Origin: Stegostoma tigrinum
Lineage: Eukaryota
Direction: 5' to 3'
Length of the DNA stretch: 64,000 nucleotides
Assembly (NCBI RefSeq): GCF_030684315.1
Contig: NC_081362.1
Coordinates: 54,463,744-54,527,743 of the forward strand
The translations under genes were made by a program, and so were the position numbers. The notes beneath the pieces were generated by a model. It searched no databases. It saw only the letters and a program-made list of their open reading frames with translations, and was not told the DNA's origin. Shown piece after piece: positions 2,777 to 31,255 of the stretch; the first letter of the stretch is position 1, and every line of letters begins with the position of its first letter.

Positions 2777-3349
2777 CAGAGATAATGGGAACTGCACATG
2801 CTGAAGAATCTGAGATAACAAGGTGTGGAGCTGGATGAACACAGCAGGCCAAGCAGCATCTCAGGAGCACAAAAGCTGATGTTTCGGGCCTAGACCCTTC
2901 ATCAGAAAAGTTGGTTCCATAGGCAGGTGCTGAGAAGGTGATGTGGCTGTGGTACCTGGTTTGCTTCAGGACATGGTCGAGCAGTTTCAAGGCCGAAAAG
3001 ATGACGAGAGTTGCAGTGGGAGAGGGATCCCCTGAGGTTGGTCCGGAGGGAGGAGGGTAACTTCTTCAGGTTAGGCATCCTGGAAGAGGCTTCGCAGTGA
3101 GGTTAAAATTGTGATCACAGATAATGGGAACTGCAGATGCTGGAGAATCTGAGGTAACAAAGTGTGGAGCTGGATGAACACAGCAGGCCAAGCAGCATCT
3201 TAGGAGCACAAAAACTGACGTTTCGGGCCTCGACCCTTCATCAGAAAAGGCCTTTTCTAATGTAGGGTCTAGGTGCGAAACGTCAGTTTTTGTGCTCCTA
3301 AGATGCTGCTTGGCCTGCTGTGTTGATCCACCTCCACACTTTGTTATCG
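2777..3349 (-). mobile_element. Internally deleted Penelope-like element: pLTR - 5' ORF remnant - pLTR, plus inverted pLTR arm
   Basis: Direct repeats at ~2777-2909 and ~3116-3250; inverted arm 3251-3349. TSD cttccatttgtttt (2763-2776) / ctttcatttgtttt (3350-3363), 1 mismatch. ORF remnant from ATG at 3078 (minus): MPNLKKLPSSLRTNLRGSLSHCNS../KLLDHVLKQTRYHSHITF/LSTCLWNQL, frameshifted. Confidence 0.8.
3217..3244 (-). ncRNA. Minimal hammerhead-ribozyme-like core (PLE type)
   Basis: Minus strand: CTGATGA-AGGGTCGAGGCCC-GAAACGTC. Conserved CUGAUGA and GAAA boxes, GGG/CCC stem II, palindromic ACGU stem III and GUC cleavage triplet. Stem I is only about 2 bp. Confidence 0.65.
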
Positions 3350-3651
3350 CTTTCATTTGTTTTGTCCCTTTTTCAGGATAGCCTAGTCTTTCCAGCCAGT
3401 TAAGCACTTGCCCTTTTTAATTGTAGGAAGTTGTGGCAGTAAATTTGCATAGTGCTCCAAACAACAGAAAAAAATAAGAAAGCAATCTGTTTGTAGTAGA
3501 TCTTCAGGGATAAGTATTAACCAGTTCACTTCTTTTGTTGTGAAAACTACCTTTCTTGCTGGTATATGGAGGATGATGGGCTGCATTGAAGTGGAATGGT
3601 GGATCCGCTTGGCATTGGCAGTCTGGGGCATGGAGCATTGGACATTGGGAC

Positions 3652-3965
3652 AGAATCATAGAATCCCTACAGTGCAGCAAGAGGTCATTTAGCCCATCAA
3701 ATCTGCACGGACTGTTTGAAGAGCATCCCATAAAGATGCAGCAACCCTAACCCTATCCCTATAATCCCACATGACCATGGCTCATTCACCCAACCTGCAT
3801 TTTTTAGGATTGAGGGAGGAAAGCAGGGCACCCAGCAGAAACCCACTCAGAACAGGGAGAGCATGTAAACTACACACAGGCAGTCACATAAGGCTGGAAT
3901 CTAACTCCGGTCCCTGGCGCTGTGAAGTAGTAGTGCTAACCATTGAGTCATTGTGCATGCTGCCC
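3652..3965 (-). mobile_element. HE1-type V-SINE (tRNA-derived)
   Basis: Reverse complement of the SINE at 7820; more diverged. Confidence 0.85.
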
Positions 3966-4114
3966 CAAAGTTTGGTGTGAGGGGCAATGAATTGGCATTG
4001 CTGAGTTGAGGGGCATAGATTGGCATGGGGGTGGAAGAGTAAGCTTTCATGACCTTTAAGCAATGTTGGGAGCTGGTCTCCTATGATGGAGAACAGAGAG
4101 AGATTCACTACTGC

Positions 4115-5040
4115 ATCTTACTAATGGTCATTAGGCCCTTCAGGCCATTGAGTCTGCTCTGCTGTTCAGTAAGATCATGGCTGGTTTGATCATCCTGAAC
4201 TCTGCTTTCCAGCCTTTATCCTAAACCCTTGATTCCTTTGAATATATTTAATGACTCAATAGTTTTCTACAGCTTGGAAAAAAAAATTCCACTCATTCAG
4301 CCTCCCTTGGAGAAAAAATGTCTTCTCATCTCTGACTGAAATAGGCGCGTTCTTATCCTGAGAGTTCTAGCCTCTCCCTCAATTGGGAACCACCTTTACA
4401 CATCTATCCTGCCATGCCCCTTACAAATTTTGCATGTTTCAAGAAAATTGCTTCTCATCTAAATTCCTACAAGTACAGGCCTAAGCTACTGATCCTCTCC
4501 TCGTAATACAGTCCCTTCATACCTAGTGAACCTTGTTTGGACAGCACTGTACTCCAACTGTGGTCTAACTTGCCTAGTTTTAGCAAAAAGTCCTTAATTT
4601 TATACTCCATTCCCTTTCAGATTCCATTTTTAAAACTCCAACATTGTTTTTTGCAATACAATACATTCCATTACACTTCCATAACCAGATCCAAAATAGC
4701 CTAGTCTCTGGTTGGATCCACGACATATTGTTCAAGGAGACTATTCTGAATGCTATCTGTTTTCTTCCTCAGTTTCCTCTGGCAATCTTATTATCCCAAT
4801 TTGCATTAAGTTTAAGGACATATTTTATTTTTATTTATTTGCCTTTTCTTTCCTGCACCCAAAAGGATTCTACAGCTTCCAATCTGAAATAATTTCTTCC
4901 TATCATATTTATTCCATCCCATACCAACAAAGCCACCCTACTATGCTTCCCTTTCTTTCCAGCCTTTCAAAAAAAATCACCTACTCCCAAATATATAGTT
5001 CCCAGCTTTGATCCCCTTGTGACAATTTCGCCAATCATCT
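4115..5040 (-). mobile_element. Decayed CR1 LINE fragments
   Basis: CR1 3' end (ggccattgagtctgctctgctgttcagtaagatcatggctg) followed by RT C-terminal and endonuclease-region remnants on the minus strand. Confidence 0.7.
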
Positions 5041-5050
5041 ATTTTTTTTT

Positions 5051-5371
5051 TAGAATTGGAATTAGAATCCCTACAGTGTGGAAACAGGCCCTTCGGCCCA
5101 ACAAGCCCACACCGAACCTCGGAGCATCCCACCCAGACCCATCCCTTTATAACCCACCTAATCTATACCTCCCTGAACACTATGGGCAATTTAGCATGGC
5201 CAGTCCACCTAACCTGCACATCTTTGGACTGTGGGAGGAAACCGGAGCACCCGGAGGAAACCCACGCAGACACAGGGAGAAAGTGCAAACTCCACACAGA
5301 CAGTCGCCCAAGGCTGTAACTGAACCTGGGTCCCTGGCGCTGTGAGGCAGCAGTGCTAACCACTGAGCCAT
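5051..5371 (-). mobile_element. HE1-type V-SINE
   Basis: Minus strand tggctcagtggttagcactgctgcctcacagcgccagggacccaggttc (A/B boxes), V-domain gtgggtttcctccgggtgctccggtttcctcccacagtccaaagatgtgc, and a CR1-like tail. Confidence 0.92.
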
Positions 5372-6479
5372 CTTATTCTCAATGTTCAGCGTGTTCAAGT
5401 AAAGAACCACTAATTTTGCCTTATACAATTTTGTCACCTTTTGACTCTCTGTCATTTTTCTATGGCCATGTACTCTGCCCCTTCCTGTCCTACTGTAGAA
5501 ATTGTTATCCAAATAATTGCCATGTAATGCTTCCATAATCATATTATATTCCTCGTTAACTGCATCATGGCTCGCAAAATGCACTGCAGATCCAAATGCT
5601 GTGTGGAAAGACAAAACTCCAAGGTTGCACATGCAATTTTGTGCACAAAAGTGAAAGGTGGGATTTTCCCAAGCCTATAGACTGTCTGGCCCCATGTATT
5701 GCTCTAAACTATGCTTATTCCCATTGAGGCCAGTATCTTTTCTATGGTGCAATACCCAGAATTATCTGTAGTACTGAAGGTGAAGTCTGACCAGGGTTTT
5801 GTATAGCTGAGGTATGTCTTTTATCCCAGATATAAAGTCCAGCATTCCATCGGCCTTTTGGATAATTCTCTTTATCAGCTGATGTCAATTTAATGATTTA
5901 TGTACTTTGACCCATGTCTCTTTGGCCGTCCGTTGTTTCTACCTTTTATACCATTATAAAGTTCAAAGGGTGACTCTGATTTTACTTAGGATTATATGCT
6001 GATGATGTGCCAATTCTTATAAAAGATATGATCTTTGTAATTAAAGATGATGCTAAATGAGTAGAGAGATAGCTAAGGACAGAAAGTAAAATGTGGATGT
6101 AATTAATATTTTTAGAACTATTGGCGTGTGGAAAGGTCTTGAAAGGATCACTGACATTTGTGTACAAATAAAATGCACACAGACACAAGAATTGATATCT
6201 TGGGGCCATAAAGAAAGAAAGAATACCAAAAATTACAGGCTGATGCAGGTTAGCAAATCGGGTGCTAGATGCAATTCAATGCTAGAAAAGCTGAAGTAGA
6301 TCATTTCCGGGAGATGGAGATGAAAAACAGTTGAAGGAAAAAGCCTTGAAATGTTAAGACTCTTAACTGTGATTACTTAGTTCTTGTGTGCTTACATCTC
6401 TGACATTACCTGTGTTTTTATATTCTTATAAAGAAATAGGAAAAGTCTTGAAGTTCTGAACTGAAATGACTGAAATGCT

Positions 6480-7230
6480 TCAACTAATTTGCAAACAACA
6501 AGCTTTGTCCATTCATTCATGGTAAAAACAGCAAAGAACAAAAAATGAGAGAAAAATTATGGTGTATGAGAAAGCTAACCAGAAATATAGCTAGGTAATG
6601 AAATTTTCTACAATTTTTTTAAGGAAACAAAAAGTTAATATTTGTCCTATAGAAGGCACACCTGGAGAACTAATAATGAAAACTAAGGAAATGGCTGGTG
6701 AATTGAAGAAATCTTGCATTGATCTGCACTATAGAGAATATAAATTACATCTCCGATGCAGCGATAAATTAGGAAATGGAAGGGAAGAAGAAACACAAAA
6801 TCACCTTGACTAAGGCCTGGCCTATGTGTGACTCCATATCCAGAGCAATATGGTTGACTCTTAAGTGCCCTCTGAAATGGCTGACCAAGTTACTTAGTTC
6901 GGGGTGATTAGGTGTTGGGCCTCAAAAAAAAGCCAGACTATTGTTACGTTGATTTTAACTTTCAAAAACTCCATTGATTTGGGAATGTTTCCATTAGATT
7001 AGAAGATAATGAACAGAGCTCCCTTACTCAAAAAGAGAGAGACAGTAAACAGGAAACTCTATGCCGGTTAGCTTAACTTCTGTCATGGGAAGATGTTAGC
7101 AAATATTATTAAACAGGTTGTTGCAGGACACTTAAGTAAGTTTGAGGTAATCAGGTGTAGAATCAAAATCATTTTGTGAATGGCAGATCCTGATTCACCA
7201 ATTTTTCGAAGTTCTTCGGGGAGATGACAT
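6480..7230 (+). mobile_element. Decayed CR1 ORF2 fragment with a nested SINE-tail insert (~6810-6920)
   Basis: GELIMKTKEMAGELK linker motif, then a degenerate RT N-terminal region (ccattagattagaagataatgaac..ccggttagcttaacttctgtc). Confidence 0.65.
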
Positions 7231-7610
7231 GTCAGTCATTCTGCATAGAAACAGACCTTTGGCCCACCATGTCTATGCTGACAAGTACCAAACTATACTC
7301 ATTCCCATTTTCCTATGTTTGCTTCATTTTAAAATGCCAGGGCATAGTGGGAATACTAACCCAGATGCTTCTTAAATGTTGCTAGAATACCTGCCTCTGT
7401 TGCCCTCTCAAGCAGCACGTTCCACATATCCACCACCCTCTGGGTGGAAGAAGATTTTTTTCAGATTTCCGCTAAACCACCTGCTCTTCACTTTTTAAAA
7501 ATTCTGTTCTATGATCTTAGCATATGTATCTATGGGGAAGAAATTTTCACAATCTACTCTATCAGTACCTGTCAATTTTGTGTACCTCAATCAGATCTCT
7601 TCTCTCTCCG

Positions 7611-7633
7611 CCCCCCCCCCCCCCCCCCCCCCC
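7611..7633. repeat. Poly-C homopolymer (23 nt)
   Basis: Seen directly. Confidence 0.95.
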
Positions 7634-7819
7634 GGCCAACAGTCTCCTCTGCTCCAAGGAAAACAAACCCAGCCTATACAGTCTGTCCTCATAATTGAGA
7701 CTTTTTGTCCCAGGTAACAGCCAAGGACCAGCCTTCGATGTGGGACATTGTCAAAGTCCTTACTGAAGTCCATTGTAAACCATATCAACTGCACTACCTT
7801 TATCAATACCTGCCTTATT

Positions 7820-8132
7820 GGGCAGCACAGTAGCTCAGTGGTTAGCACTGCAGCCTCAGCACCAGGGACCTGGGTTCAATTCCAGCCTCGAGTGACTGTC
7901 TGTGTGGAGTTTGCACATTCACCCCGTGTCTGCATGGGTTTCCTCCGGGTGCTCCGGTTTCCTCCCACAGTCCAAAGATGTGCAGGTTAGGTGGACTGGC
8001 CATGCTAAATTGCCCATAGTGTTCAGGGGTATGTGTATTACGGAGGATGGGTCTGGTTGGGATTCTTCAAGGGGTGGTGTGGACTTGTTGGGCCGAAGGG
8101 TCAGTTTCCACACTGTAGGGAATCTGATCTAA
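7820..8132 (+). mobile_element. HE1-type V-SINE, full length
   Basis: A-box tagctcagtgg at 7831, B-box ggttcaattcc at 7873, V-domain core, tail gggccgaagggtcagtttccacactgtaggg. Confidence 0.92.
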
Positions 8133-9379
8133 TACATTTAGTCTCCTTTTCAAAAAAATCAGTTAAAATAGTCAGACAGGATCTCCCTCTAACAAATCTG
8201 AGCTGACTGTCCTTGATCACTCCCTGTCTTTCCAAGTATTGATCAATCCTGTCCTTCACATTTTTTTCCAATAATTTCCCCACCACTGATGTTAGTCGAA
8301 CTGATTACCCGCCCTATCTCTGCTGCCTTTCTTAAGCAAAGGAACCACACTGGCTACCCTTCACTCATCTGGCACCTTGTCGGTGGTCAGTGAAGTATTA
8401 AATATATCTGCCATGGACCCAACAATCTTTACCCTTGCTGCCTGTAGCAACCTGGAATAGATCTCATCAGGCCCTGGGGATTTGTGTATCTATGTGCCTG
8501 CCAAAACAGCTAATACTTCCTCTTTATTAATCTTCGTTTGTTCCAGACCCCCTCGTTCCAACAGAAATTCCTGGCTACAATGTCTTTCTCCTCTGTGAAT
8601 AGAGGTGAGAAGTATTCGTTTAAAACCTCACCCATGTCCACTGGCTCCATGCTTGAATTTCCATAATTTATCCCACTCTTTCCCTGGTTCTCCTCTTAGT
8701 CCTAATATACTTGGGCTTTACCTTGGTCCCACTTGCCAAAGATATTTTGTTGCTCCCCTTTGCCCTTGTAAATTCTTTGTTAAGCAGCCCCCTACTTCAA
8801 AACTTTTTTGAATAGTTTTCCCTGCTGTATCTGACACATGCTTCCTACTTTTTCTTTATAAAACTGTCCATAACCCTTGACATCCAGTGTTCCCTGGACT
8901 TGCTGCAATTGCCCTTCACTCTTAAAGGTACATGCTGGTGCTGAATTAATTCTCACTGTCCTACTTATAAAGGACTCCCTCTTTCCAAATGTAGACTTGA
9001 TATAAGTAGCTGCTCCAAATTGGTCTTTGGCAGCCTTTGTCTAATGATATTGAAATCAACCTTCCTGCAATTGAAGCACTTAACTTCTATACTATCCTTG
9101 CCCTTTTCCATATTGACTTTGAAATTTAGGGTAATGGTCACAGTCTTCAAAATGCTCGCTTACTGAAACTTCAACCACTTGACCGGCTTCATTCCCTAGG
9201 ACTATGTCTAGCACTGCCTCATCTACTATCTGTATACTGGCATAGTCTCCCAGATGCAGCCTAAAAATTTGACCCCATCTTGTCCTTTTACACTAAGGTG
9301 ATCCCAATTAATGTTAGCAAGGTGGATGTTAAAAATCAAATTAAGAACTAAGTAAGTAAAACATACCATACAGGGAGCA

Positions 9380-12190
9380 ATTCAAGACAGAGGAGAAAAG
9401 AGAAATATTGTTGAAATCGGGGATAGTATATAGTTAGGGAAATTGACACTGTTCTCTGTGGCTAGATTCAAGAGTCCAAAAACAGTGTTGCCTGCCTGGT
9501 GACTGGGTTCAGGATATCTCATGTGGGCTGCAGAGGAGTTTGGAGCAGGAGGGGAAAGAACTGGTTGTCATGGTTCATGTGGTTCCAATTATCTAGGTGG
9601 AAAGAGGTTTTGCTGGGGGAATATGAATAGCTTGGTGTGAAATTTAAAAAAAATCAGGAAGGTAATAATGTCTAGACTACGACCTGAGCCACAAGCTAAA
9701 CGGCACAAAGTCAATAAGATTAAAGAGAGAAATGTCTGGCTCAAAGATGGGTGTGGGAGAAACCGGTTTGAATTCATGGGATTTTGGCACCAGTACTGGG
9801 GAAGGAGAGAGATGGTCTGATGGGATGGGCTCCACCTGAATTTTATGCTGGGACCAGAGTCTTGGCGAATCGTATAACTATGGTTATGGATAGTGCTTTC
9901 AACTAACATTGGGTGTGGTAGTTGTCAGTTGTATGGAAAATCAGAAAAATTAAAGCGGGGGAGAACTCAACAGAGGCTAATTAAAGTTTCCATAATAATA
10001 TGGAGTATGGAAAGGGTCAGGAGTCTAACTTAAGGTACAGCAGATGACTATGACAAGGCAGGAACAGTTAAGACAGGATTGAGGGTGCTGTACTTAATTT
10101 ACCTTATTTTGTGTACTGTGCATTTAACTTGAGTGCAGATTGAAATTGACAGGTATGATGATGTGGGTGTCATGACAAGTGTCTTCAAGGAGATCATGAC
10201 TGGGAATTAAATATCCAAGGATACGTACGCTGTCAAAAGGAGAGGCAGAGGAGGTTGGGTTGCCTTGTCGTAAGAAATGGAATTAAATAGATAGCAAGAA
10301 AAGTGATAGAATCTGTGTGAATAGAGTTGAGGAACTATAAAGGGAAAATGACCCTGCTGGGCATTGTGTAAGGCCCCCTGGCAGTAGTCAGAATGTGGGG
10401 AAGAAAATAAATCAGGAGATGGACAAGGCATGAAAAAAGGCACTGTTACAGTAATTGTGGAGTTCAAATTGCAAGTGGACTGAGAAAATCAAGTTGGTAC
10501 TAGATCTCAAGAAGAAATCTGTGGAAGGCCTAAGAGAAGGTTTCTTTTTGGAGCAATTTGTGGTAAAGGCTACACGGGAACATGCAATTTTGGATTTGAT
10601 GTGTAATGAGGGAAACTTGATTAGGAAGCTTAAAGAGAAGGAATCCTTCAGGAACAGAGACTATAATATGATAGAACACGCAGTTCGATTTGAGAAGGAG
10701 AAGCTGGAATCAGATGTAACAATATTACAATTGGGTGAAGGTATCCACAAAGATATGACAGGAGCTGGCCAGTACTTGAGGAGAGGGAATGTAGTAGGGA
10801 AAATGATACTTCAGAAACCCTTTTTCTTCAGAGACCTTTTTTTCTGAAGAAGGGTCCCGACCCAAAACATCAGCTTTCCTCCTCCTCTGATGCTGCCTGG
10901 CCTGCTGTGTTCCTCCCGCTCTACAGCTTGTTATCTCAGATTCCAGCATTGGCAGTTCCTACTGCCTCTGGCTGAGTCAGCATGGCTTTGTCAAGAGGCA
11001 GTTATGCCTCTCTAATCTGTTAGAATTCTTTGAAGTAATGAGCAATTTAAACCAAGGAGAACCAATGGATGTGGTGCATTTGGACTTCCAGAAGGCCTTT
11101 GATGTAGTGCCACAGGAGGCTGCGAAATAAAATAAGAGCCCATGGCGTGAAGGGCAAGTTAGTGACATGGATAGAGGATTGGTTGACTGGCAGAAGGCAC
11201 AGAATTGGGTTAAAGCAACCTTTTTCAGAATTGCAGCCCATGACTTGCGGAGTTCTGGAAGGGTCCACGTTGGATCACTAATAATCTACACAAAGGAGCT
11301 AAGGACATTATTGTTGCTGAATTTGCAGAGGGCACAGTGGAGAATAGGTAGGGTTGAGGAAGCAGGGTGGCTGCAGAAAGACTTGGACAGACAAAGAGAG
11401 TGGGCGAAAAGTGGTGGATGGAACACAATGTGGGAAAGTATGAGGTTATGCACTTTGTTATGAACAATAGAGGTGTAGACAGTTTTCTAAATGGGGAATG
11501 ATTTTGGAAACCTAGTTCTCAATTCTGAAGGTTAACATGCAGGTTCATTTGACAATTAGGAAGGCAAATGCAATGTTAGTATTCTTTTCCATAGGGCTGC
11601 AATTAAAGAGCAGGGATGTCTTTCTAAGGCTCTATAAGGCTCTGGTCAGACCACTTGTGAAATGATATAAGCACTTTCATGACCCTTGTGTAAAGAAGGA
11701 TATGCAGGTGTTGGAGGGGCGGCGGGGGGGCTCCTGATGAGATTTACAAGAATGATCCTGTTGATGAAGGGTGCTTCGTATGAGGAGCAGTTGTGGACTA
11801 GAAGGGTGAGGAGGATTTGATAGAAAGTGAAGAATACTGAGGGGCCTAGAGTGGACATTGAGAAGATGCTTCCACGAGTAGGAGAAAATAGGACCCAAGG
11901 GCGCAGCCTCAGAATAAAGGGACGACCCTTTAGAACTGAGATGAGGACGAAATTCCTCAGCTAGAGGGTGGTTAATCTGTGGAACTCATTGCTACAGAAG
12001 ACTATGGAGGGAAAATTATTGAGCATATTTAAGACAGAATATTAAGCTAAGCTCTTGATTAGTAAGGGGATGAAGTGTTATAGGGAGAAGGCATGAGAAG
12101 GGGCCTGCTTTACATATCAGCCATGGTTGACTTTTGGAGCAGGCTCGATGGGCTGAATGGCAAAATTCTGCTTCTATATCTTATGATCCA
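9380..12190 (+). mobile_element. Long decayed CR1 LINE with ORF1 esterase remnant, endonuclease, RT and 3' end
   Basis: From ~9410: IGDSIVREID..CCLPG..VVMVHVGSN (SGNH esterase of CR1 ORF1). Endonuclease FLEQFVVKATREHAILDL; RT VVHLDFQKAFDVVP; 3' tail ggagcaggctcgatgggctgaatggc. Internal deletion around 10800-10970. Confidence 0.85.
10843..10969 (+). mobile_element. Single Penelope pLTR arm (second subfamily) with hammerhead-like remnant
   Basis: CTGAAGA-AGGGTC-CC-GACCC-aAAACATC then ctgatgctgcctggcctgctgtgttcctcc..ttatctcagattccagcattggcagttcc. Homologous to the arms of the hairpin elements. Confidence 0.75.
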
Positions 12191-13502: not shown

Positions 13503-14632
13503 TTAGGGCACATGGTACTGGGGGCAAAATACTGAGTTGGATTGAAAATTGGCTGGCTGACAAAGCAAAGAGTAGTGATAAACGGGTCCCTTTCGGAATG
13601 GCAGGCGGTGACCAGTGGGGTACCACAAGGTTAGGTGCTGGGACCGCAGCTGTTTACGATATATATTAATGATATAGACGAGGGCATTAAAAGTAATATT
13701 AGCAAATTTGCTGATGACACAAAGTTGGGTGGCAGTGTGAAATGTGAGGAGGATGTTATGAGAATACAGGGTGACTTGGACAGGCTAGGTGAGTGGACGG
13801 GTGCTTGGCAGATGCAGTTTAGTGTGGATAAATGTGCGGTTATACACTTTGGCGGCAAGAACAGGAAGGCAGATTACGATCTCAATGAAGTCAAGTTAGG
13901 TAAAGGGGAAGTACAACGAGATCTAGGTGTTCTTGTACATCAGTCAATGAAAGCAAGCATGCAGGTAGAGCAGGCAGTGAAGAAAGCTAATAGCATGCTG
14001 GTCTTCATAACAAGAGGAATTGAGTATAGGAGCAAGCAGGTCCTTCTGCAGCTGTACAGGGCCCTGGTGAGACCGTACCTGGAGTACTGTGTGCAGGTTT
14101 GGTCTCCAAATTTGAGGAAGGACACTCTTGCTATTGAGGGAGTGCAGCGTAGGTTCACGAGGTCAATTCCCAGAATGGCGGGCCTATCATATATTGTAAG
14201 ATTGGAGCGACTGGGCTTGTATACACTTGAGTTTAGAAGAATGAGAGGGGATCTGATTGAGGCGTATAAGATTATTAAGGGATTGGACACTCTGGAGGCA
14301 GGAAGCATGTTTCCGCTGATGGGCAAGTCCAGAACCAGAGGACACAGTTTAAAAATAAGGGGTAGGCCATTTAGAACAGAACTGAGGAGAAACTTCTTCA
14401 CCCAGAGAGTGGTGGATATATGGAATGCTCTGCCCCAGAAGGCAGTGGAGGCCAACTCTCTGGATAGTTTCAAGAAAGAGATAGATAAAGCTCTTAAAGA
14501 TAGTGGAATCAAGGGTTATGGGGATAAGGCAGGAACAGGATACTGATTGTGGATGATCGGCCATGATCATAATGAATGGTGCTGGCTCGAAGGGCCGAAT
14601 GGCCTACCCCAGCACCTATTGTCTATTGTCTA
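13503..14632 (+). mobile_element. Young 5'-truncated CR1 LINE; RT C-terminal ORF 13635-14546 intact
   Basis: 303-aa open frame LGPQLFTIYINDID..KFADDTKLGG..LYRALVRPYLEYCVQVWSP..RNFFTQRVVDIWNALP. 3' UTR ends in a ctattgt repeat tail. Frameshift near 13565. Confidence 0.95.
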
Positions 14633-14634
14633 TA

Positions 14635-16330
14635 ACTCATCTATGCCAACCAAATATCCTAGATAAATCCAGTCCTATTTGCCAGTATTTGGCCCATTTC
14701 CCTGTAAACCCTTGCTATTCTTACACCCATACAGATGCCTTTTTAAAGGTTGAAATAGTACCAGTCTCCACTGCTTCTTCTGGCAGCTCATTCCATACAT
14801 GCACCACCTTCTGCAAGAATAAGTTCCCCCATAAGTCCCTTTTAAATCTTTCCCCTCTCACCATAAGCCTTTGCCCTCTCGCTTTTGACTCCCCACCCCA
14901 GGGAAAAGACCTTGTCTATTTACCCTATCCATTCTTCTCATAATTTTATAAACTTTTACAAAGTCACTCCTCAGCCTTTGACATTCCAAGGTAAATAGCC
15001 TAGCTTATTCAGCCTCTCCCTATAGCTTAAGCCCGCCAATCCTAGCAACATCCTTGTAAATCTTTTCTGAAACCTTTCAAGTTTCATAACATCCTTCCTA
15101 TAGCAGGGTGACCAGAAATGCACACAGTCTTCCAAAAGTGGCCTAAACTAATCTCCTGTACAGCCGCAGGATGACCTTCTAACTCCTGTGCTCAATGAAC
15201 CGACTAATAAATCAAGCATGTTAAATACCGCCTTCGCTACCGCATCTACCTGCAACTCCACTTCCAAGGAACTATGATGCTGCTCTCCAAGTTCTCTTTG
15301 TTCAGCAACATTCCCCGGGACCTTACTATTATGTGTTTAAGCCCTGCCCTGATTTGCCTTTCCAAAATGCACCACCTCACCTTTATCTAAATTAAACTCC
15401 ATCTGCCACCTATTGGCTCATTTGATCAAGATCTCGTTGTCATCTGAGTTAACCTTTTTCACTGTCCACTACAGCTCCAATTTTGGTGTCATCTGCAGAC
15501 ATATTAACCATGTTCACATCCAAATCACTTGTAAATAATGAAGAGCAGTGGACCCAGCACCAATCCTTGTGACACACCACTGGTCACAAGCCTCCAGTCT
15601 GAAAAGACACCCTCCACCACCACCCACTATCTTCCACCTTCAAGCCAGTTCTGTATCCAGATGGCTAGTTCTCCCTGTATTCCATGTGATCTAACTTTAC
15701 CAACCATCTGCCATGAGGAACCTTGTCGATCGTCTTACCGAAGTCCATTTAGATCATGTCCACTGCCCTGTGCACATCAGTCCTCAGTTACTACTTTAAA
15801 AAATTGTCATGTTAGTGAGGCATGACTTCCCATGCACGTAGCCCTATTGACTACTCCTAATTAGCCCTTGTCTTTCCAAATACATGTAAATCCTGTCCCT
15901 CAGCACTCTCTCCCACAGCTTGTGCACCACCAATGTCAAGCTCACTGATCTGTAGCTCTCTGGCTTTTCCTTACCACCTTTCTTAAATAATAGCACTATC
16001 CGGCACCTCATCTGTGACTATTGATGATACAAAGATCTTAGCAAGGGGCCCAGCGATCATTTCTCTAGCTTCCCATAGTGTTCTAGGGTACAGCTGGTCA
16101 AGTCCTGGGGATTTAACCACCTTTATGTTTTAAGACATCCTGCACCACCATTTTCTAATATGGACATTTTTCAAGATATTGCCATCTATTTCTCCACGTT
16201 CTACATCTTCCATAACCTCCACAGTAAACAAATGTGAAATACTGATTTGGTATCTTCCCCCATCTCCTGCGGTTCCCCACATGGGCGGCCCTGCTGATCT
16301 TTAAGGGGCTCTGTTCTCTCCTAGTTACCT
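14635..16330 (-). mobile_element. CR1 LINE, 5'-truncated
   Basis: Minus-strand RT (gtctgcagatgacaccaaaattgg = SADDTKI; ggtgctgggtccactgc) running to the 3' end near 14635. Confidence 0.88.
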
Positions 16331-16339
16331 TTTTTTGTT

Positions 16340-17392
16340 GACGGAATTCTGAGAGAGAAGATCTACATGCATTTGGAGAGACAAGGACTGATTAGGGACA
16401 GTCACTGAGTTTTGTTCAGACTGAAGGCCTGTGACCAGCAGTGTGCCACGAGGATCAGTGCTGGATCTGCTGTTCGTCATTTATATAAACGATTTGGATG
16501 TGAATATAGGAGGCATGGTTAGTAAGTTTGCAGATGAAATCATAATTCCTGACATAGTAAATAGTGAAGAAGGTTATCTAAGAATACAATGGGATCATTA
16601 AGAAACTGGACTAGTGGGCTGAGGAATGGCAAATGGAGTTTAATTCAGATAGACAAGACTTGCACAATTGACGGTAGGGTCCTGGGGTGTGTTGTCAAGG
16701 AGAGCGACAAAAGTGTGCAGGTTGCATAGTTCCTTAAAACTGGCATAACGGATAGATAATGTGCTAAAGAAGGCATTTGATGCACTTGCCTTCAGTCAGA
16801 GCACTGAATACAGGAGTTAGGACATAATGTAACGACTGTACAAGAGATTGGTAAGGCCATGTTTGGAGCACTGGTACAATTCTGGTTGCCCTACTGTAGG
16901 AAGGGTATTATTAAATTGGATAGCTTGCAAAAAACTCTTACAAGGATGATATGAGAAGGTTTGAGTTATAATGAGAGGCTGGGTAGGCTGCGACTTTTAT
17001 CCCTGGAGAGTAGGAGGCTAAGTGATGACCTTTATAGAGGTTTATGAAATCATAAGGGGATAGATAAGATGAATAGCCAATGTCTTTTTCTCAGGGTAGG
17101 GGAGTCCAAAACTAGAGGACATAGGTTTAAGGGTGAGAGGGGAAAGACTTAAAAGGGACCCAAGGGGCAACCTTTTCATACTGAGGATAGTGCATAAAAG
17201 GAACAAGTTGCAGACGAAATGTTAAATACAGGAATAGTTACAACATTGAAAAGACATTTGGACAAGTACATGGATTGGAAACGTTTAGAGGGATAGAGGC
17301 CAAATGCAAGCAAATGGGACTAGTTCACTTTAGGAAACCTGGTTGGCATGGATGAGTTGGGCCTAAGGGTCTGTTTCGCTGCAGTATGACTG
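16340..17392 (+). mobile_element. CR1 LINE, 5'-truncated, similar to 14635-16330
   Basis: gtgtgccacgaggatcagtgctgg..ataaacgatttggatg..aagtttgcagatga; tail gggcctaagggtctgtttcgctgcagtatgac. Confidence 0.88.
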
Positions 17393-17409: not shown

Positions 17410-18125
17410 TGGTGAGAAGATGTAAAGAGCCATCAGGATGACTTAGACAAGTTGAGGGAGTGGGGAAAATGTGTAGCAAATGCAGAGTAACGTGGAAAAA
17501 TGTGAAGTTTCTCACTTCAGTAGGAAAAACAGAATAGTAGTATTATTTAAATATTGGAATTTTCACCGTGAGCATTGAAAGCAAGCATGAAGGTGCAACA
17601 GGCAGTTAAGGCCTGTGGCATTTTGGCCTTTATAGCAAAAGAGTTTAAATTCAGGAGCAAGAGGACTCTTTGCAGCTGTACTTTGCCTCAGTGAGATGAT
17701 ACTTGGAGTATTGTGTACTGTTTTTTGGTCTCTTTAACAAAGCAATTAAATGCATACCATAGAGTAGATGTAGCGAAGGTTCGCCAGACTGATTACTGGG
17801 ATGTGATAATGGGAACTGCAGATGCTGGAGAATCCAAGATAATAAAGTGTGAAGCTAGATGAACACAGCAGGCCAAGCAGCATTTCAGGAGCACAAAAGC
17901 TGACGTTTCGGGCCTAGATCCTTCACCAGAGAGGGCCCTCTCTGGTGAAGGGTCTAGGCCCGAAACGTTAGCTTTTGTGCTCCTGAGATGCTGCTTGGCC
18001 TGCTGTGTTCATCCAGCTTCACACTTTATTATCTTTGATTACTGGGAAGGCTGGTTTGCTGTATGAAGAGAATTTGGGTCAACTGGGCCTGTATTCACTG
18101 GAGTTTAGAAGAATGAGGGGAGGAC
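17410..18125 (+). mobile_element. Decayed CR1 RT fragment hosting a hairpin element
   Basis: LLYEENLGQLGLYSLEFRRMRG continues after the insertion. Confidence 0.8.
17802..18035 (-). mobile_element. Penelope-derived hairpin element (inverted pLTR arms)
   Basis: Perfect centre cttcaccagagaggg|ccctctctggtgaag (axis 17935/17936). TSD tgattactggga at 17790-17801 and 18036-18047. Confidence 0.88.
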
Positions 18126-20671: not shown

Positions 20672-20762
20672 TGCTTTTCTGCGCCTCTGATGCTGCCTGG
20701 CCTGTTGTGTCCCTCCAGCTCCACACCGTGTTATCTCTGACTTCAGTATCGGCAGTTCTTCC
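20672..20762 (+). mobile_element. Partial Penelope pLTR arm (10843-type)
   Basis: cctctgatgctgcctggcctgttgtgtccctccagctccacaccgtgttatctctgacttcagtatcggcagttc. Confidence 0.7.
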
Positions 20763-22724: not shown

Positions 22725-22929
22725 GTAAGTCATGTTGTTTCTGTTAAATCTTTAACTGAATACATGTACTCTCTTTTACCAGTGGCCAGTTGAGAAACTG
22801 AACTGATTTACATTGGGATTATGTACTTAGTGGAGTACAAGAGGGACTGATTTTGTTTTGATTGCATTCCCTTGTCACTGTAAATTATTGCCTTCTCTCC
22901 CCTACTAATTCTTCTTCTTTGGACCAAAC

Positions 22930-24130
22930 CTGTCACTAAGATTGAGAGACAAAGTAAAGGGAACTATACCAAAGTGTACATGGCGTTTGTAATAAGGTAG
23001 ATTATTTAAAGGCAAAGTAGATGAAATTGGGTGTGATCTAATCACCATTATTGATAACATGCCTGCAGTGTGACCAAGGAATATTTGACAATTAGAAAAT
23101 ACAGGCATAAAGGAAGAGCAGGTAGTGACAAGCTAATGATTAAGAATAGGATCAAAATGTTAGAGAGGAAAGATCTCCAATCGAAAGAACAAAATGCGGA
23201 ACCTGTTACAATGGAGCTAAGGGGCAGCAAACACTGGTAGGAGTTATTTATAGGCCATCAAATAGTTGCGTCAGTATGGGTCATGGTTTTAGTCAGGAGA
23301 TTAGAGAAACATGTGGCACAAGTAATACGGGTATCATGGGTGAGTTCAGTCTGTGTATAGATTGGATAAACCTAATGAGCAGGTATGATAGAGATAATGG
23401 GAACTGCAGATGCTGGAGAATCCAAGACAACAAAATGTGAGGCTGGATGAACACAGCAGGCCAAGCAGCATCTCAGGAGCACAAAAGCTGACGTTTCGGG
23501 CCTAGACCCTTCATCCTCGGATGAAGGGTCTAGGCCCGAAACGTCAGCTTTTGTGCTCCTGAGATGCTGCTTGGCCTGCTGTGTTCATCCAGCCTCACAT
23601 TTTGTTGTCTTGAGCAGGTATGATGTTGTGGATGACTTTCTAGAGTGTAGGGATTGTTTGTAGAGCAGTATACGGAGAAAAATTCCCGTGTGCAAGCTAT
23701 TTTAGATCTAGTACTAAGAAATGTAAAAGGCCTAATTAATAATTTTGTTGCAAACGAACCTTTATAGAAAATGAAATCATACAGTGCAGAAGAGGCCCTT
23801 CAGCCCATCAAGTCTACATTGACATGTGAGAAAGACCTGACCTTTAACCTAATCCTATTTACCTACACTTGGCCTGTAGCCTTGAATTGCCAAGGGGATA
23901 AATGAGCAAAATATGATATAGAATTTTACATTAGAACAAAGAAAATTGTGAATGTATGAGGAGCAAATTGATTGAAATAGATTGGATAAATACATTAAAA
24001 ATATGACAGTGCATGGGCAATGATTTTTTTTAAAAGAATGAGTGCATAGTTTAGAGCAATTCTATGTTCCTTTAGGGCACAAAAACCCAAAAAAGCAGTC
24101 AGCTGTGGCTAACAAGGGAAATTTAGGATT
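22930..24130 (+). mobile_element. CR1 endonuclease-region fragment starting ~200 bp after the LPGAT1 exon
   Basis: tgtgatctaatcaccattattgataacatg..ggagttatttataggcc..atcatgggtgagttc..gctattttagatctagtac. Interrupted at 23390 and ~23765. Confidence 0.75.
23390..23610 (-). mobile_element. Penelope-derived hairpin element
   Basis: Arms of ~92 bp that are perfectly complementary by eye around a 2-nt loop (23517-23518). Perfect TSD tgagcaggtatgat at 23376-23389 and 23611-23624. Confidence 0.92.
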
Positions 24131-24724
24131 GTATAATGTTTTGACACAAATCAGCCTTTCTAATTCTGTATTTGCAGCGCAGTAAAATTAAAACCTTCAA
24201 AGACTCTCGAAATCGACCTCAATGGTGTCTGACCAGACTTATGAGTAAAAAATCCCAGAGTGTGTGAACAATACATTCTGGACTGCAGTTTTTATCTTAA
24301 ACAAAAAATTTAGTAATTTATTAGTGGTATAGTAACGTTAGCAGAGCAAAAATTAAGCAACAAAACAATTTTTAATTGGACTATTCCATAAATCCCAAAG
24401 TCTTTGTTTTCATCCCAATTCAGACAAAAGACAGACAAACCAGTTAAGGAATAAATAAAATAGCAAAACTGGCCAGATTACTTGAGTAGTTTTCATGATG
24501 TGTCGTTCCACAAACATTAGATGGTTACTTTATTGATTTTCTGAACATGTCAATCAACGTCACTTTACAGTGCACTCGGGTCAAGCCATAATACATATAA
24601 CTTGGTTTTCTATTCTTTGAACTTCCCAAAGCTGATGAGGAAGGTTAGGCATGGAGCTTTCCAATGTTCATGCTTTTGCATCTGCATCCAGGTTCCCTTT
24701 TACCCCAGAAAACACAGTCCAAAA

Positions 24725-26345
24725 CCCAATCCAGTAGTGTTAGAAAAACTAATGGACCTAAAGGTCGATAGATCTCCTGACCATAATGGCTTGCATTCTA
24801 GGATCCTAAAAGAGGTAGCTACAGAGATCGTGGATGTGTTGGTTGAAATTTTCCAGAATTTGTTAGATTCTGCTCAAGGCCAGGAGCCGGTGAATTCTTC
24901 TTTGGGTTTGTGACCCATGATCAGTGGGGTTCCACCGGAATCCGTGCTGGATCTGCATCTGTTTACAATATATATTAATGACTCGGATGAAATAAGTAAA
25001 TGTACGATAGCCAAATTTGCAGACATCACAAAAGTAGGTGGAAAGTCAGGTTGTGGGAGGGATAAAAAGTTTAGGGATTTATTGATAACTTAGGTGGGCA
25101 AAAAGTTGGTAAATGGAGAATAATGTGGGAAAATGTGAACTTGTTTGTTTTCAAAGGAGAACAAAAGAACAGAATGCTATTTAAATGGAGAAAAACTGCA
25201 GAAAGCAGCAACACAAATGGAACTTGTGGGTGTTTATGTATAAAACACAAGCTACCTCACAGGTACAACAAGATAATCGAGTAGGTTAATGGAATGTTGG
25301 CCCTTATCTTACAGTGCCTGTACAAGGTGAGACTACATCTGGAGTACTGTGAGCAGTTTCAGTCCATTTATTATAGCAAAGATATCATTCACTGGTGGCA
25401 GTTCAGAGAATTTCACTGGGGTGATCTCTGGTATGGAAGGATTGTCTTATGTGCAAAGGCTGAGCAGGTTGGGTCTGTATTCAATGGAGTTTACAAAGAT
25501 GAGAAGTGATTTCATAAAAGCAAAGGATCCTTAAAGGGCTTAACAGGATAAATGCTGAGAGGATGTTTCCCTCATGGGTGAGTCTAGCATTAGAGGTCAT
25601 AGTCTCAGAATAAAGGACTGTCAATTTAAGACTGAAATGAAGAGGAATTTCTTCTGTCCATGGGTTGAGTGTCTTGGGAATTTTTTTGCCACAGAGCTGT
25701 GGGGAGTTGACTGCTTGTGTATTTACAGTCAAGATAGATTCTTGATCAGTAGGGGAATCCAAAGTTATGAGGAACTGGCAGGAAATCATGTGTGAGGAAT
25801 GTCAGATCGGCCATGATCCTGTTGAATGGCAGTGCAGGCTCAATGGGCCAAATGGCCTACTCATGTTCGTATTTCTTACGGTCTTATGGACTTGTTCCCG
25901 GGATGGTGGGATTATCCTAAGAAGTGAAATTCAAGAACCTGGGCCTAATTTCTCTGGAGTTTCAAAGAATAAGTGATCTCATTGAAATCTATAAAATCTT
26001 TAAAGGAACAGATTGTATATGTATTGGTATGATGTTTCTCCGGCTGGGAATCTAGAACCAAGGAATGCCATTTCAAAATAAGGGGGAAATTGCCTTGGAA
26101 GGGAATGAGGATTTTGTTTCACTCGAAGTACTGAGATTCTTTTGGAATTCACTACACCAGAAGGCTGAGGAACCTTGGTCAATGAGAACGTGTAAAGTAG
26201 AGCTTAATAGATTTTTAAATACTACTGATATAAAGGGACATGGATGTAATGATGGAAAAGGGCACTGAAGTGGATTATCAACCAGGATTGTATTGAATGG
26301 TAGAGCAGGTTCAACAGGCTGAATGACCTACATCTGTTCCAATGT
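24725..26345 (+). mobile_element. Two tandem CR1 3' fragments
   Basis: VLEKLMDLKVDRSPDHNGLHSRILKEVATEIVD; aaatttgcagacatcac (FAD); GHSLRIKDCQFKTEMKRNFF; a second 3' end at 25890-26345. Confidence 0.85.
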
Positions 26346-28379
26346 TCAGTATCAAGCTCATTACAAAGATTGCTTGTCACTAGGTCGTCTTCTGCATTTC
26401 ATATTGGCTTTGCGTTCATCTCTCTATAATCCATTCTAGATTACACATGACTCAGACTTTTAGAGTTTATAGATGCTTTTGACTCCAAACCTTTGATTCT
26501 CAGATAATGAAGCAGTCTGTTCCTCCTGCAGCAAGATCCGGATAACTCTCGGCTAGATAATTATGTGGTAGGTAACATGTACACCACAAAGGAGAGCTGT
26601 GTTCATCTTGAGCAATAGCAAGTCTAACCATCTTCCTTCTTGTTATTCAATGACTTGACCATCAGAGGTAACTCTTAAGTAGAAAACATAACAGGACAAG
26701 CGACAAATCCAATGGTTAGGAGCAAGTCAGAACTGGTTATTCAAAAGCAAGTAACTCCTCTCTTCTCAAATTCTTTCCATCATCTGTATGACGTAGTTCA
26801 CTTGCCTAGTATACCTGCCTCCACAGTCTGCAGTGATTGACAGCTTGTCTTAACTTAGATTGCAGTTAGGATTTGGCAATAACTGTTGGTTTTGTCTCAG
26901 TCACCCACATACCACGAACAAATTAAAGAAAAAGAATGTTTCATGTTTGCTTTTATCTTTTTAAGATGTAAAATGATACCATACAGTTGTTATCAATTGA
27001 TATTATTTCTTCTCTAGGTAACTTAAATCTACAATTATATTAGGTTGATATACTCTGAAGAGATTTTCTAGAACTTTTAAGCTTTACAATTTAACAATCT
27101 GCTTTATCAGTAAAGAAATTGTTTCAGTAACAACTGCATTAATTACTTGACAGTATTGTTCCTGTACTGAATTAACATATGGAACTTAAACATTGATTTT
27201 GCATCCAAGTTACACAATGCATAATTTCGTATGTTTTCTTTTTCTTTGAGTGAGTATAAATTGATAGAGCAGATTGTGATTGAAATTGTGGGAGTGACAA
27301 AGTTAGTGCAGTAGGTAATTTCAGATATCAGGGTTGCTAAAACTTTCCTGACAACATTTTTAAGTCTAAGTACACGTCCTTTCATAATTGATCAGTGTAT
27401 AATATTGGTTGGCCTCAATTACTTGTGTTTGGTTTGATATTTGGAATTTTTCTTGGGGTTTTGCCGGAAAGTGTGACCAAAACATAGGCCTGTATGTTCA
27501 GAATGAGCAACCATTTTCAGTTACGTTGAAATAATTCTGCACACCGGGATTCTGTCTGATTTCTTCGTAGTAAGGAGGAAAAGGACACAGTGGGCATCAG
27601 AAAAATTGATGGATCAGGGTAGGGAGCCTGATGCACATCTGGAAAGATGGACCTTGAGTTATTTAAGAGTGGTGAAGTAAGCAAGGAAGAAATGGAGTGG
27701 ACAAATTCAGAGGCCAGGCATATAGTGGTGAGCAAACAGCCAACGACAGTGGAGTGGTGAGAGGAAAATGTAGAACCAACATTGGAGGAGCAGTGGATAT
27801 TTACAGTAATGTGTGTTGATGCTTGTGTTAAGGCATTGTTCAACATATATAAACTGTATTGGAGGTCTCACCTCCTCCTAACTGCATCTTGGTATCTGTC
27901 CCATTTGGCCCATGTAGGAGTATGTGGCTGAGAAGGTAGATGCTGAGAATTTTGCTGTTGCATTAGTTGGACTGTATTTGGTATGTGACTTAAGTAGAGA
28001 TAAATAGGAGGTAGAGCTACATTAGTTGTTCCCAATCCATTGTGAAAGGTGGAAGCGGAGAAGGACAAATCAGATGAATGTAATGTTTTCTAAGAAGTTG
28101 GCAACTGCTTCTCAAACAGTGAAAGCAATGTCTGACTGACAAAGAGTGCTTTGTCTGGCAGTCTCTTAACTTTTCACAGAAAAGCTCAGGCTAAGGTAGT
28201 TAAGTGCCATATGTGGTGAAAGCGACTGACCAGTACTTGAGAGAAGGAGAAAATCAGATTGTATTTTGATACAATGTCAGAAGTTTGATCAAATGTGACA
28301 TCAAGGAGCTTTATTAAAACTCATGCCACTGGGAATCAGGATAGAAGATTTGAGCCAAAGTCATACCTGGCCACAAAGG

Positions 28380-30420
28380 AATTTGTTCATGTTAGAGGTC
28401 AATCCTCTGAATGCCAAGGTATTGCTGCAGGAGTTCAAGGGCCAAGCAGCTGTTCCATCAATGACCTGCCTTCCAGCATAGGGTTAGATGTGAGAATGTT
28501 GATGATTGCACACTGTTCAGTTCCATTTGCAACTCCACAGATAACGAATTAGCCCTTGTCCAGATGTAGCAAGACCTGGACAAGACATAGCTTTGTTATA
28601 ATAACATTGCTGCCTTCTGTCGTATCTGCTTCTTATCTTGCATAGACCCCTATAAACATAGCTTCATAGGTTCCCACATTCAAAGGTGTCCTGGAGGCAG
28701 TATCTGACATATACAACAGTGATTTTGCTGAACATTTTAAAAAAGTATCATTTGCAAATGTAAATGAGGGTAGAGTGATGGTGACAAACCTAGCTGTTAG
28801 TCAGGAATCCCTGAACTCCAGAACCACGTTTACCCAAAGTGAAATTGTTTCTCTACAGCTACAACAAGCATCTATTCAGAAATATGAAAGATTGGTCAGG
28901 TATATCTTGGCCATACAAAGCAGGACAAGTCCAACTGGTAGATAAAGTTGTAACAGTCTGTTTTCAATACCAGTAACCTGATGGTCGGGGTTGACAGTGC
29001 TGTCAAGCAAAACTTGCTCAAAAATAGTCAGCTCACTGATATTCACTTTGAGTTCTGCCAAAGCCACTCAACCTCTGACCTGAGCCTTGACTAAGCATTT
29101 ACAAAAGAGCTGAACTCCAGAGGCGAGGTGGCATCAAGGCAGCATTTGGCCAACTATGGCATCAAGGAGTCCCAGCAAAACTGCAATCAGCAGAAATTGG
29201 GGGGGAAAAGAAACTCTGCTGGTTTGAAATATCTTAAGGATAAAGGAAGATGCTGGTCCACCACCTAATCAGCAAGGTTAATGGAAACTAACCTTTATTA
29301 CAAGTGGAATTGAACTTAACAATGTGTTATTCATCAATTATACAGGGCATTGGTGAGACCAATTAGGGATCACGCTTTTAGGGTAGAGAAGGGAATTTTT
29401 TGTGGCTGAGAGCCTATGAAACACTCTGTGTCAGACGTTGGGTGGAACAGAGGTCACTGAATATTTTGAAGGCAAAGAGTTTTCTTGTTTAGCAAGAAAA
29501 TCAAAAGTTATGTGAGGGTGTTTGCTATGAGTGCAGAGTGTTGCATTGAGATGACTCAGATAGTGAAGTAGTCCACATCCAAATACAGCATAATCTGCAG
29601 AACATCCATGTTTGGGTTGACAAGTGGCAAGTAACATTCAAGCCACTCAAGTGGTAGGCAACTACCATCTCAAAGAGAATCAGAACAACCTCCACTTGAC
29701 ATTCAATGGGATCATCATCGTCGCTGAATTCCCCCCCCACGACTATCACCATCCTAGGAGTTACCATTGACCAGAAACTGAACTGCAGTAGCCACATAAA
29801 TACTGTGGCTACAAGCACAGTTCAGAGGCTAGGAATTCTGTAGTGAGCAATTCTCCTCCTGTCTTCCCAATCACTGTGCATAATCTACAAGATGCACATC
29901 CAAGATCTGATGGAATAGCTTCCACTTGTCTGAACAAGTATGACTCCAACAGCACTCAGTGTTTGATACTGCCTAGGACAAAGCAGTCCATTTGATTGGC
30001 ATCCCACCCACTGCTTTCAACATTCTTTCCCTTCACCACTGATACACAGTGGCACAAGTATGAGCCATCTGCAAGATGCACTGCAAACATTTGGCCAGGC
30101 ACCTTCAATAACACTTTCCAAATGTGCAAACTCCCCTTTCTGGAAGGACAAGGGCAGCGGATGCAGAGGAATGGGACCACTTGCTAGTTCCCCTCCAAGC
30201 TATAATGCTGACTTGAAATTATCAACGTACCTTCACTGTACCTGGGTCACCGTCCTAGAACTCCTTTCCTAACAGCACTGTGGTTATACCCACACCCTAA
30301 GGATTGCAGTGGTTCAAGAATGCAGCTCGCCACCACTTTGCTGAAAGCAGTCAGAAATGGACAAAAAAAATTACTGTTTCTGGCAATAACCACCAAATCC
30401 CTTGAACTTTTTTAAAACAA
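28380..30420 (+). mobile_element. Fragments of a second CR1-group LINE family
   Basis: agctgttccatcaatgacctgccttcc; gacaagtggcaagtaacattc..accattgaccagaaactgaactg..atctgcaagatgcactgc..cagtggttcaagaatgcagctcgccaccac. Homologous to 41170-42195. Confidence 0.75.
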
Positions 30421-31022
30421 AATGTGCTAACTTCTGTTTTGCAAAAACTAAGATGAAATTGAGCCTCTAACTGGAATTGCTATCAATGGACCACAGGCAA
30501 CAGTGCTTAGACAAGCTTTAAAAAGCTGATAGCTACTTTACAGAATTTTGAATATGTAAGTATAACATTTCATCAGGAGTATTTTGTGTCTGAGAAAATG
30601 CATTTGTTTTAAAGCATTTCATAACAGCTGTTTAGGAAATTGTCATGAAATTGAAACCACTGCACTTGATTACAAATAATTTTCCCTGTAAATCTGACTG
30701 CAGACCATATTCACCCATAGGCTGGCTGTGTTTTTTTTAAACTGCTGATTGTTTCACCATCTGTTCACTTCATTGATTCTGGATTTAATGCATCACAGAA
30801 GCTTCAGACATTTGCAGCAGATTAATTTGGATGTATGATGTTTAATAAAGGCACCATTTCTCATCTTTATTAACTACAAGATAGTGAATTCCCTCAGAAC
30901 ACAATCCCAGAATTTATGCCAGAGTCATACTTTCAATAGTCTCCGGCGTTGACCTTGCTAGTTTCAAGTTCAGTAAGAGGGGAAACGATAATGTAGAGCA
31001 GGCAGGTACAACACTATTGGAA

Positions 31023-31255
31023 ATAATGGGAACTGCAGATGCTGGAGAATCCGAGATAACAAGGTGTGGAGCCGGATGAACACAACAGGCCAAGCAACAT
31101 CTTAGGAGCACAAAAGCTGATCTTTCGGGCCTAGACCCTTCATCAGAAAAAGGGTCTTTTTCGGATGAAAGGTCTAGGCCTGAAACATCAGCTTTTGTGC
31201 TCCTAAGATGCTGCTTGGCCTGCTGTGTTCATCCAGCTCCACACTTTGTTATCTC
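31023..31255 (-). mobile_element. Penelope-derived hairpin element
   Basis: Arms meet at catcagaaaaag-ggt-ctttttcggatg. Perfect 15-bp TSD acaacactattggaa at 31008-31022 and 31256-31270. Confidence 0.9.

Follow-up and report, generated by a model that had tools for sequence, protein, structure and literature searches.

A 64,000-nucleotide stretch of the Stegostoma tigrinum genome (hereafter the window; NCBI RefSeq assembly GCF_030684315.1, contig NC_081362.1, positions 54,463,744 to 54,527,743 of the forward strand) holds four hairpin insertions that a first-pass annotation had described as inverted arms with back-to-back hammerhead-ribozyme cores. Our analysis identifies these hairpins as the shortest members of a graded series of inverted and 5'-truncated insertions derived from a Penelope-like element (PLE) that encodes a reverse transcriptase (RT) and a GIY-YIG endonuclease (EN). 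The hairpin axis tracks the predicted transcription start of this element, not the ribozyme cut site. In the reading that we favour, with a probability of roughly 0.62, both target strands were primed on one RNA and both complementary DNAs (cDNAs) ran off its predicted 5' end and were joined with trimming.

All four insertions are present where they had been reported (Table 1). Their inverted arms, given as about 95-100 bp, measure 94-105 nt with a complementarity of 92-100%, and the target-site duplications (TSDs), given as 12-15 bp, are 14 (one mismatch), 12, 14 and 15 nt long in insertions 1 to 4. The predicted fold of insertion 2 (-197.9 kcal/mol, z -27) is far from chance. A feature absent from the earlier description is the asymmetry of the hairpins, whose left arm carries an additional PLE tail of ~33 nt.

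The family was analysed in a sample of 16 blocks (1,720,131 non-N bases), which were chosen irrespective of the element except for the window's own block. Out of 396 arm matches, 312 with at least 82% identity over at least 40 nt were retained and 84 were dropped. The natural full-length copy L191, read in cDNA sense with the tail end as the origin, serves as the reference for positions; in this reference numbering the predicted ribozyme cut lies between 96 and 97 and the CUGAUGA box at 118-124. The family makes up ~9.5% of the sampled DNA and 75 of its 104 close inverted repeats. Directly joined inverted pairs account for 174 arms (87 pairs), 83 of them combining a tailed with a tail-less arm, three two tailed arms and one neither. 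A TSD score of at least 8 was obtained for 62 of the 83 pairs versus two of 83 at shifted control positions, with a modal TSD length of 14 nt and most lengths at 12-17 nt. Arm starts cluster at -4 to +1 and at 31-33, the inserts range from ~110 nt to 4 kb, and tail-only as well as tail-less single insertions were found. In 54 pairs both arms are at most 133 nt long (short pairs), and only one junction geometry recurs among them, with both arms ending at 130 and a 0-nt junction; it is that of window insertions 1 and 2, members of two different subfamilies. Since nearly all junction geometries are unique, each hairpin appears to have been made anew rather than to be a unit that spreads.

The PLE origin of the arms, suggested in the first-pass annotation, is borne out by long and full-length copies, in which the arm is directly continuous with an open reading frame (ORF) for RT and GIY-YIG endonuclease. 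In a 4.1-kb insertion within 40 kb downstream, the same arm continues into the ORF, and the insertion has an inverted tailed arm, a tail-less arm and a 15-nt TSD. The protein search for the parent element yielded 305,489 first-look candidates. In natural frames, RVT_1 (E 2.3e-5 and 4.4e-5) and GIY-YIG (E 2.7e-4 and 2.2e-3) matched with scores that fall short of Pfam's cut-offs. The RT motifs ADKGG (DKG), MDVQSLY, GVAMG and RYIDD stand together in one natural frame, VYCIHCTRCGYLYIGET downstream of the RT is a GIY-YIG segment with two cysteines (CxxC) inside the motif, and a CX2-5CxxC linker between RT and EN occurs at residue 494 of the L192 frame. Judged from these frames, the parent is an EN-containing (EN+) PLE of Neptune/Nematis layout by the linker definition given in PMC8557442. 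L191 consists of a partial upstream pseudo-long terminal repeat (pLTR), tail, ORF, 3' untranslated region, pLTR and tail, and the partial tandem is shared by 14 ORF-start loci with an upstream 3'-end copy of variable length. In all, ~2,700 candidate ORF starts were counted. At one locus (L004, 731-973) a young 4-kb copy sits within an older member of the family; another (L204) contains several consecutive template jumps.

A length limit near the CUGAUGA box and coupled arm lengths

Arm ends accumulate just before CUGAUGA is passed by more than a few nt. Among the 195 arms at risk, 69 end at 125-132, that is 1-8 nt upstream of the box (4.4% per nt), while 0 of 126 end at 133-157 and the rate further upstream is ~0.1% per nt. 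Among the arms without a long neighbour, nearly all of which are non-palindromic, 57 of 101 end at 71-129 and none at 130-214. The presence of the limit in non-palindromic lone arms argues for its origin during insertion. The interval 125-132 is also the point of departure of 4 of 13 template jumps. In two public DNA-like runs, which are of unstated kind, come from one study and possibly stem from near the window's source, so that they are not independent, 671 and 682 contigs have loose ends at reference 125 compared with 685 and 657 at the tail end. The base following the arm end, inspected for a cap-derived extra C, is C in 14, A in 14, T in 9 and G in 6 cases.

TATWWAW occurs just once in the 3.75-kb sense strand, with its first base at 158, which puts the cliff 26-33 nt downstream of it. 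Among 120 long arms, 98 could be anchored and 22 could not; the word is present in 88 of the anchored arms, in 87 of them 33-36 nt upstream of core C3. A transcription start usually lies ~30 nt from its TATA box, and from this spacing a transcript start is predicted at about reference 128. The oldest subfamily has the initiator (Inr)-like CCATTTC at this position. A splice acceptor was rejected as the boundary, as its pyrimidine-tract CAG implies ends at ~146 and none were found there. In Drosophila virilis, as described in PMC2377424 and PMC4209133, the transcription start is followed 46 nt later by an intron whose end lies at the hammerhead, a precedent for a transcript start near the ribozyme.

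A second, older PLE family forms the same back-to-back hammerhead hairpins with a CUGAGGA variant (C1 83839-84025, L029; C4 41174, L095; C3b 78417, L158; and others). RT/EN homology (47-52% amino-acid identity) was found upstream of two of its four long copies. Three long copies carry a TATAAA-like word ~33 nt upstream of the box, at which CAGTT stands. In 31 of the 36 copies with an intact box, the shared sequence upstream of it is at most 7 nt long. Two further families of hammerhead hairpins were noted (C2 3543-3731, L041; C15 87812-87984, L079; L018 3720-4062), one whose palindrome is AGCU instead of ACGU, the other having longer arms, which extend past the box.

The lengths of the two arms are coupled. 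The 83 joined pairs comprise 54 short/short, 29 long/long and no mixed pairs, where 37.7 mixed pairs would be expected for independent arms (P ~1e-22). Subfamily marks mismatch within an insertion at 5.5% versus 36% after shuffling in the short pairs, and at 4% versus 18% in the long ones. With a difference of more than 3 nt as the threshold, the longer arm is the tail-less one in 37 of 83 pairs and the tailed one in 32. Arms are unequal also where they are identical in sequence, and older copies are no more asymmetric than younger ones (rho -0.17, P 0.22).

The short/short coupling and the common subfamily marks would also be obtained if the second arm arose by fold-back self-priming of one strand, as has been proposed for rotifer Penelopes (PMC3846280), with later deletions at the palindrome centre producing the asymmetry. 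The exact 0-nt palindromic junctions of insertions 1 and 2, the rare variant present in both arms of insertion 2 and the match between the tail-less arm of insertion 1 and its adjoining arm fit such a route. However, fold-back of a single tailed cDNA cannot yield a tail-less arm that is the longer one, as in the 37 pairs above, which include the youngest copies (e.g. one with 306 versus 613 nt and 0/89 mismatches); two primings can. Arms of different subfamilies within one TSD, the tail-only and tail-less single insertions and the lack of any increase of asymmetry with age also speak against fold-back, and rare variants are common to both arms in only 5 of 185 cases. We therefore regard this route as unlikely.

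About as unlikely is the view that the hairpins are PLE stubs whose cliff reflects an RT stall, set per RNA molecule, at a tract rich in C or at a hammerhead that is folded or bound by protein. The cliff does lie where a C-run of the template begins and where the hammerhead has its 5' edge, and some upstream pLTRs continue beyond it (6 of 14). Yet a chance stall at each pass implies ~38 mixed pairs where 0 of 83 were observed, similar C-runs at 133-157 have no ends, and the second family halts at the same TATA spacing on a different sequence that is not a C-run. Run-off of both cDNAs at a predicted 5' end is the reading that we pursue below.

Hammerhead motif and proposed route of insertion

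The claim that the arms start with CTGATGA cores holds in so far as the pLTR contains a minimal-hammerhead motif; 139 of 197 sampled arms spanning the core keep 11/11 invariant bases, and the variation inside CUGANGA is confined to the free position and follows the subfamily. Of the nine arms in the window, however, only three fit CTGANGA..GAAA..TH and one does so exactly. This sole exact copy, CTGATGA..GAAACGTC, lies at 3217-3244 on the minus strand, the other arms having lost or mutated invariant core bases, and the Rfam hammerhead models gave no match in the window at E<=1. Of the short hairpins (n=54), 26 stop short of CUGAUGA in both arms, 32 are left without an intact core and five contain two. 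Nor can the back-to-back cores act as a dimer from one transcript, as each strand holds a single sense core, for which pairing within the hairpin is predicted; the CUGAUGA box is predicted to be almost fully paired when read-through transcripts fold. Most of the hammerhead cores in the hairpins are defective or would be sequestered by this pairing. A ribozyme-cut template was likewise rejected as the source of the arm boundary, since only seven ends fall at 95-98 and they do not accumulate at the cut site.

A non-autonomous hairpin element, MITE-like (MITE, miniature inverted-repeat transposable element) or retrozyme-like, that spreads as a unit via its hammerheads would suit the high copy number, the narrow size class of ~200-235 nt and the motif, but is hardly tenable in view of junctions that are unique except for one pair among 54, the continuum up to 4-kb ORF-bearing insertions, cores that are not intact or predicted to be fully paired, the missing end peak at the cut site and stubs without a promoter. 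The self-spreading hairpin family that the first-pass annotation had considered is thus largely refuted, and its other option, stereotyped abortive PLE insertions, is favoured, in agreement with its preference for retrotransposition. A MITE would have a fixed short TSD, a uniform length and interior, symmetric termini and a cognate transposase; the TSDs of 12-17 nt, the unique junctions, the one-sided tail and the RT-EN linkage found here are those of a retro-insertion. A non-LTR retrozyme was rejected as well, since the insertions are single inversions and not head-to-tail tandem units that each carry a hammerhead.

In the proposed route, both target strands are primed on one RNA, whose transcription the pLTR TATA box would start 4-8 nt upstream of the CUGAUGA box. 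The protein would nick both strands ~14 nt apart, and RT would start at two sites ~33 nt apart; we infer this step from an in vitro result on another PLE, discussed below, and from the arm starts observed here. With the protein on the pLTR at the RNA 5' end, both cDNAs would be capped at ~130 nt, and with the protein on the downstream pLTR both could be long. The two cDNA 3' ends would then be joined bluntly, through microhomology or with a short filler, with trimming. The product lacks the TATA box and is predicted to be a dead end, and the hammerhead would be a passenger in insertion. Of this route, the identity with the PLE 3' end, the one tailed arm, the TSD and the unique junctions are directly observed.

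Several observations weigh against this route. Arm alignment ends are uncertain by a few nt. At the 14 ORF-start loci, the upstream pLTR extends past 133 in six and ends at 115-132 in only one, so that read-through RNAs or end-to-end jumps must join the model. Well short of the cliff, 73 of 307 arms end at 60-114, for which trimming or early stops are needed. Among the 138 arms that are not directly paired, ~5 mixed short/long cases were found by hand, and two of these involve jumps. In a third, more distant family, 11 of 12 copies with an intact box continue beyond it, and the TATA-like word is further upstream. Finally, in a few pairs the arms belong to different subfamilies, so that a single RNA is not universal: at C5 54173-54389 (L056), a 15-nt TSD without mismatches encloses two arms that disagree at 6 of 14 subfamily marks, which points either to two templates in one insertion or to later conversion of one arm.

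More tentatively, the stubs may be fossil 'strong-stop' products of a dimeric enzyme with two fixed priming sites on one RNA, sometimes two, which would run off at the TATA-defined 5' end, a short way upstream of the hammerhead, and require a jump from there to a downstream pLTR to regain the promoter. If true, this mechanism alone would account for tail, inverted pLTR and partial tandem alike, and also for the ~100,000 hairpins that the genome would hold if 54 short hairpins per 1.72 Mb applied to the whole 3.2-Gb assembly. At about one directly joined short hairpin per 32 kb (n=54), the sample confirms their repeated presence at a lower density than the one per 16 kb estimated earlier from the window.

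The hairpins of the window and their surroundings

Table 1. Members of the PLE family in the window, with arm ends in reference numbering.
Feature	Positions	Strand	Description
Insertion 1 (composite)	2777..3349		TSD 14 nt, one mismatch, 2763-2776/3350-3363; inverted arms 3155-3250/3251-3346, 96 nt, 93% complementary
Insertion 1, first tailed arm	2777..2910	-	Tail and pLTR to 129
Insertion 1, ORF-start segment	2913..3120	-	Reference 3434-3644, running into next tail; compared with natural full-length copy L191
Insertion 1, second tailed arm	3121..3250	-	To 130; exact core 3217-3244
Insertion 1, inverted tail-less arm	3251..3349	+	From 130 to ~33; mutated core
Insertion 2	17802..18035		Tailed arm 17802-17935 and tail-less arm 17936-18035, both to 130; 0-nt junction; inverted arms 17831-17935/17936-18040, 105 nt, 95% complementary; TSD 12 nt, 17790-17801/18036-18047; same CUGAUGA substitution in both cores
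Insertion 3	23390..23610		Tailed arm to 122, tail-less arm to 126; arms identical; inverted arms 23423-23516/23519-23612, 94 nt, 100% complementary; TSD 14 nt, 23376-23389/23611-23624; complete CUGAUGA in neither arm
Insertion 4	31023..31255		Tailed arm to ~132, 3-nt spacer, tail-less arm to ~128; inverted arms 31053-31152/31156-31255, 100 nt, 92% complementary; TSD 15 nt, 31008-31022/31256-31270
Lone tailed arm, no inverted partner	55259..55382	+	To 122; 8-nt TSD
Older diverged arm	10843..10959	+	77% identity; short inverted remnant upstream
Older diverged arm fragment	20673..20758	+	73-76% identity

Insertion 1 is a composite that runs from a tailed arm through ~200 nt of the element's ORF start and a second tailed arm into the inverted arm. 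Its first tailed arm differs from its other two arms at positions 41, 81, 94 and 99, and these marks suggest that it was likely copied from another template; the ORF-start segment, judged from its sequence, was reached through a template jump. The first cDNA would have extended to 129 and jumped into the ORF start of a differently marked template, continuing through the tail to 130, and this second-template cDNA would then have met the tail-less arm carrying the same marks.

The hairpins provide ready-made double-stranded RNA (dsRNA) of ~100 bp in transcripts that cross them, with RNA editing as a possible consequence, and they may mislead MITE and microRNA annotation. An Rfam scan of the window gave two weak microRNA-model matches. 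Just upstream of the window, an exon-like frame on the plus strand (L011, ~9540-9810) ends at a GT donor; it has no Pfam match and resembles a lysophospholipid acyltransferase (LPGAT1-like). The window hairpins may be intronic and hence transcribed as dsRNA.

Apart from the PLE family, the window contains a dispersed repeat family of ~310 nt, short interspersed element-like by size (5061-5371, 7819-8128, 62256-62557 and 3776-3956), and fragments of a long interspersed element-type RT at 13635-14543 and 14634-17391 (RVT_1 E 1.2e-5) with a duplicated segment of ~970 nt. A 1,290-nt inverted repeat with 99% identity, unrelated to the PLE family, lies 43 kb upstream of the window (block W 57133-58422, L015) and could be recent or an assembly artefact.

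Relation to known systems

In L1 twin priming, both target ends prime on one RNA, and in the minus-strand strong-stop step of long terminal repeat elements a short cDNA is copied up to the 5' end of the RNA, from where it may jump. The insertions described here differ from both in that fixed sites ~33 nt apart would copy the same stretch, which gives a palindrome and not an inverted upstream segment.

The motif in the pLTR has the layout of the minimal type I hammerheads described for metazoan PLEs, with CUGANGA, one unpaired base, stem II, GAAA, a palindromic ACGU and UC (Cervera and de la Pena 2014, PMC4209133), where pairs of motifs on opposite strands ~100-700 bp apart are also reported. 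It differs in a stem I of 2 bp by inspection and in being mostly broken or paired in the hairpins. Non-LTR retrozymes, as presented in bioRxiv 10.64898/2026.07.22.740005, are likewise short, non-coding, PLE-derived and hammerhead-bearing; they form head-to-tail tandem arrays, in contrast to the single head-to-head inversions with unique junctions found here.

For the anole PLE Poseidon, a protein predicted to be a dimer was reported to cut and extend both strands in vitro, with two RT start sites that bound the tail (Frangieh 2024, PMC11167929). The arm-start clusters at -4 to +1 and 31-33 resemble these two starts. According to the same paper, hammerhead cleavage is unnecessary and the main template is the unprocessed RNA, and its main text offers no explanation of inverted copies. 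Poseidon and Penelope lack the CX2-5CxxC linker that the shark element has, and the Poseidon ORF starts inside the hammerhead, whereas that of the shark element starts just past the tail.

The closest counterparts are the insertion units of canonical EN+ PLEs, which are described as a pLTR with an adjacent inverted, 5'-truncated copy, a 30-40-nt tail at one end and a TSD (Craig 2021, PMC8557442; Arkhipova 2013, PMC3846280); an inverted copy with a tail is also described in PMC8969392. The family studied here shares with them the head-to-head inversion, the one-sided tail of ~33 nt, the variable TSD, the partial tandems and an RT followed by GIY-YIG with CxxC in the motif, and TATA and Inr-like words are noted for a rotifer pLTR in this literature. 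The origin of the PLE tail and of the tandem and inverted insertions is stated to be unresolved in PMC8557442. We found no description of a TATA-aligned limit or of arm-length coupling in the literature searched, whose scope leaves aside subscription papers (e.g. Arkhipova 2006, Pyatkov 2004), Repbase/Dfam and supplements that may bear on this point. The back-to-back architecture is thus already known, and the TATA-aligned length limit and the coupling of the arms are the additions made here. The limit at the predicted promoter, the coupled arm lengths and the finding that either arm can be the longer are statistics that separate models of PLE insertion. In comparison with the canonical EN+ PLEs as described in these sources, the shark family stands apart in that about two thirds of its joined pairs are minimal (both arms at most 133 nt), with a sharp limit at the predicted start and arm lengths that are coupled.

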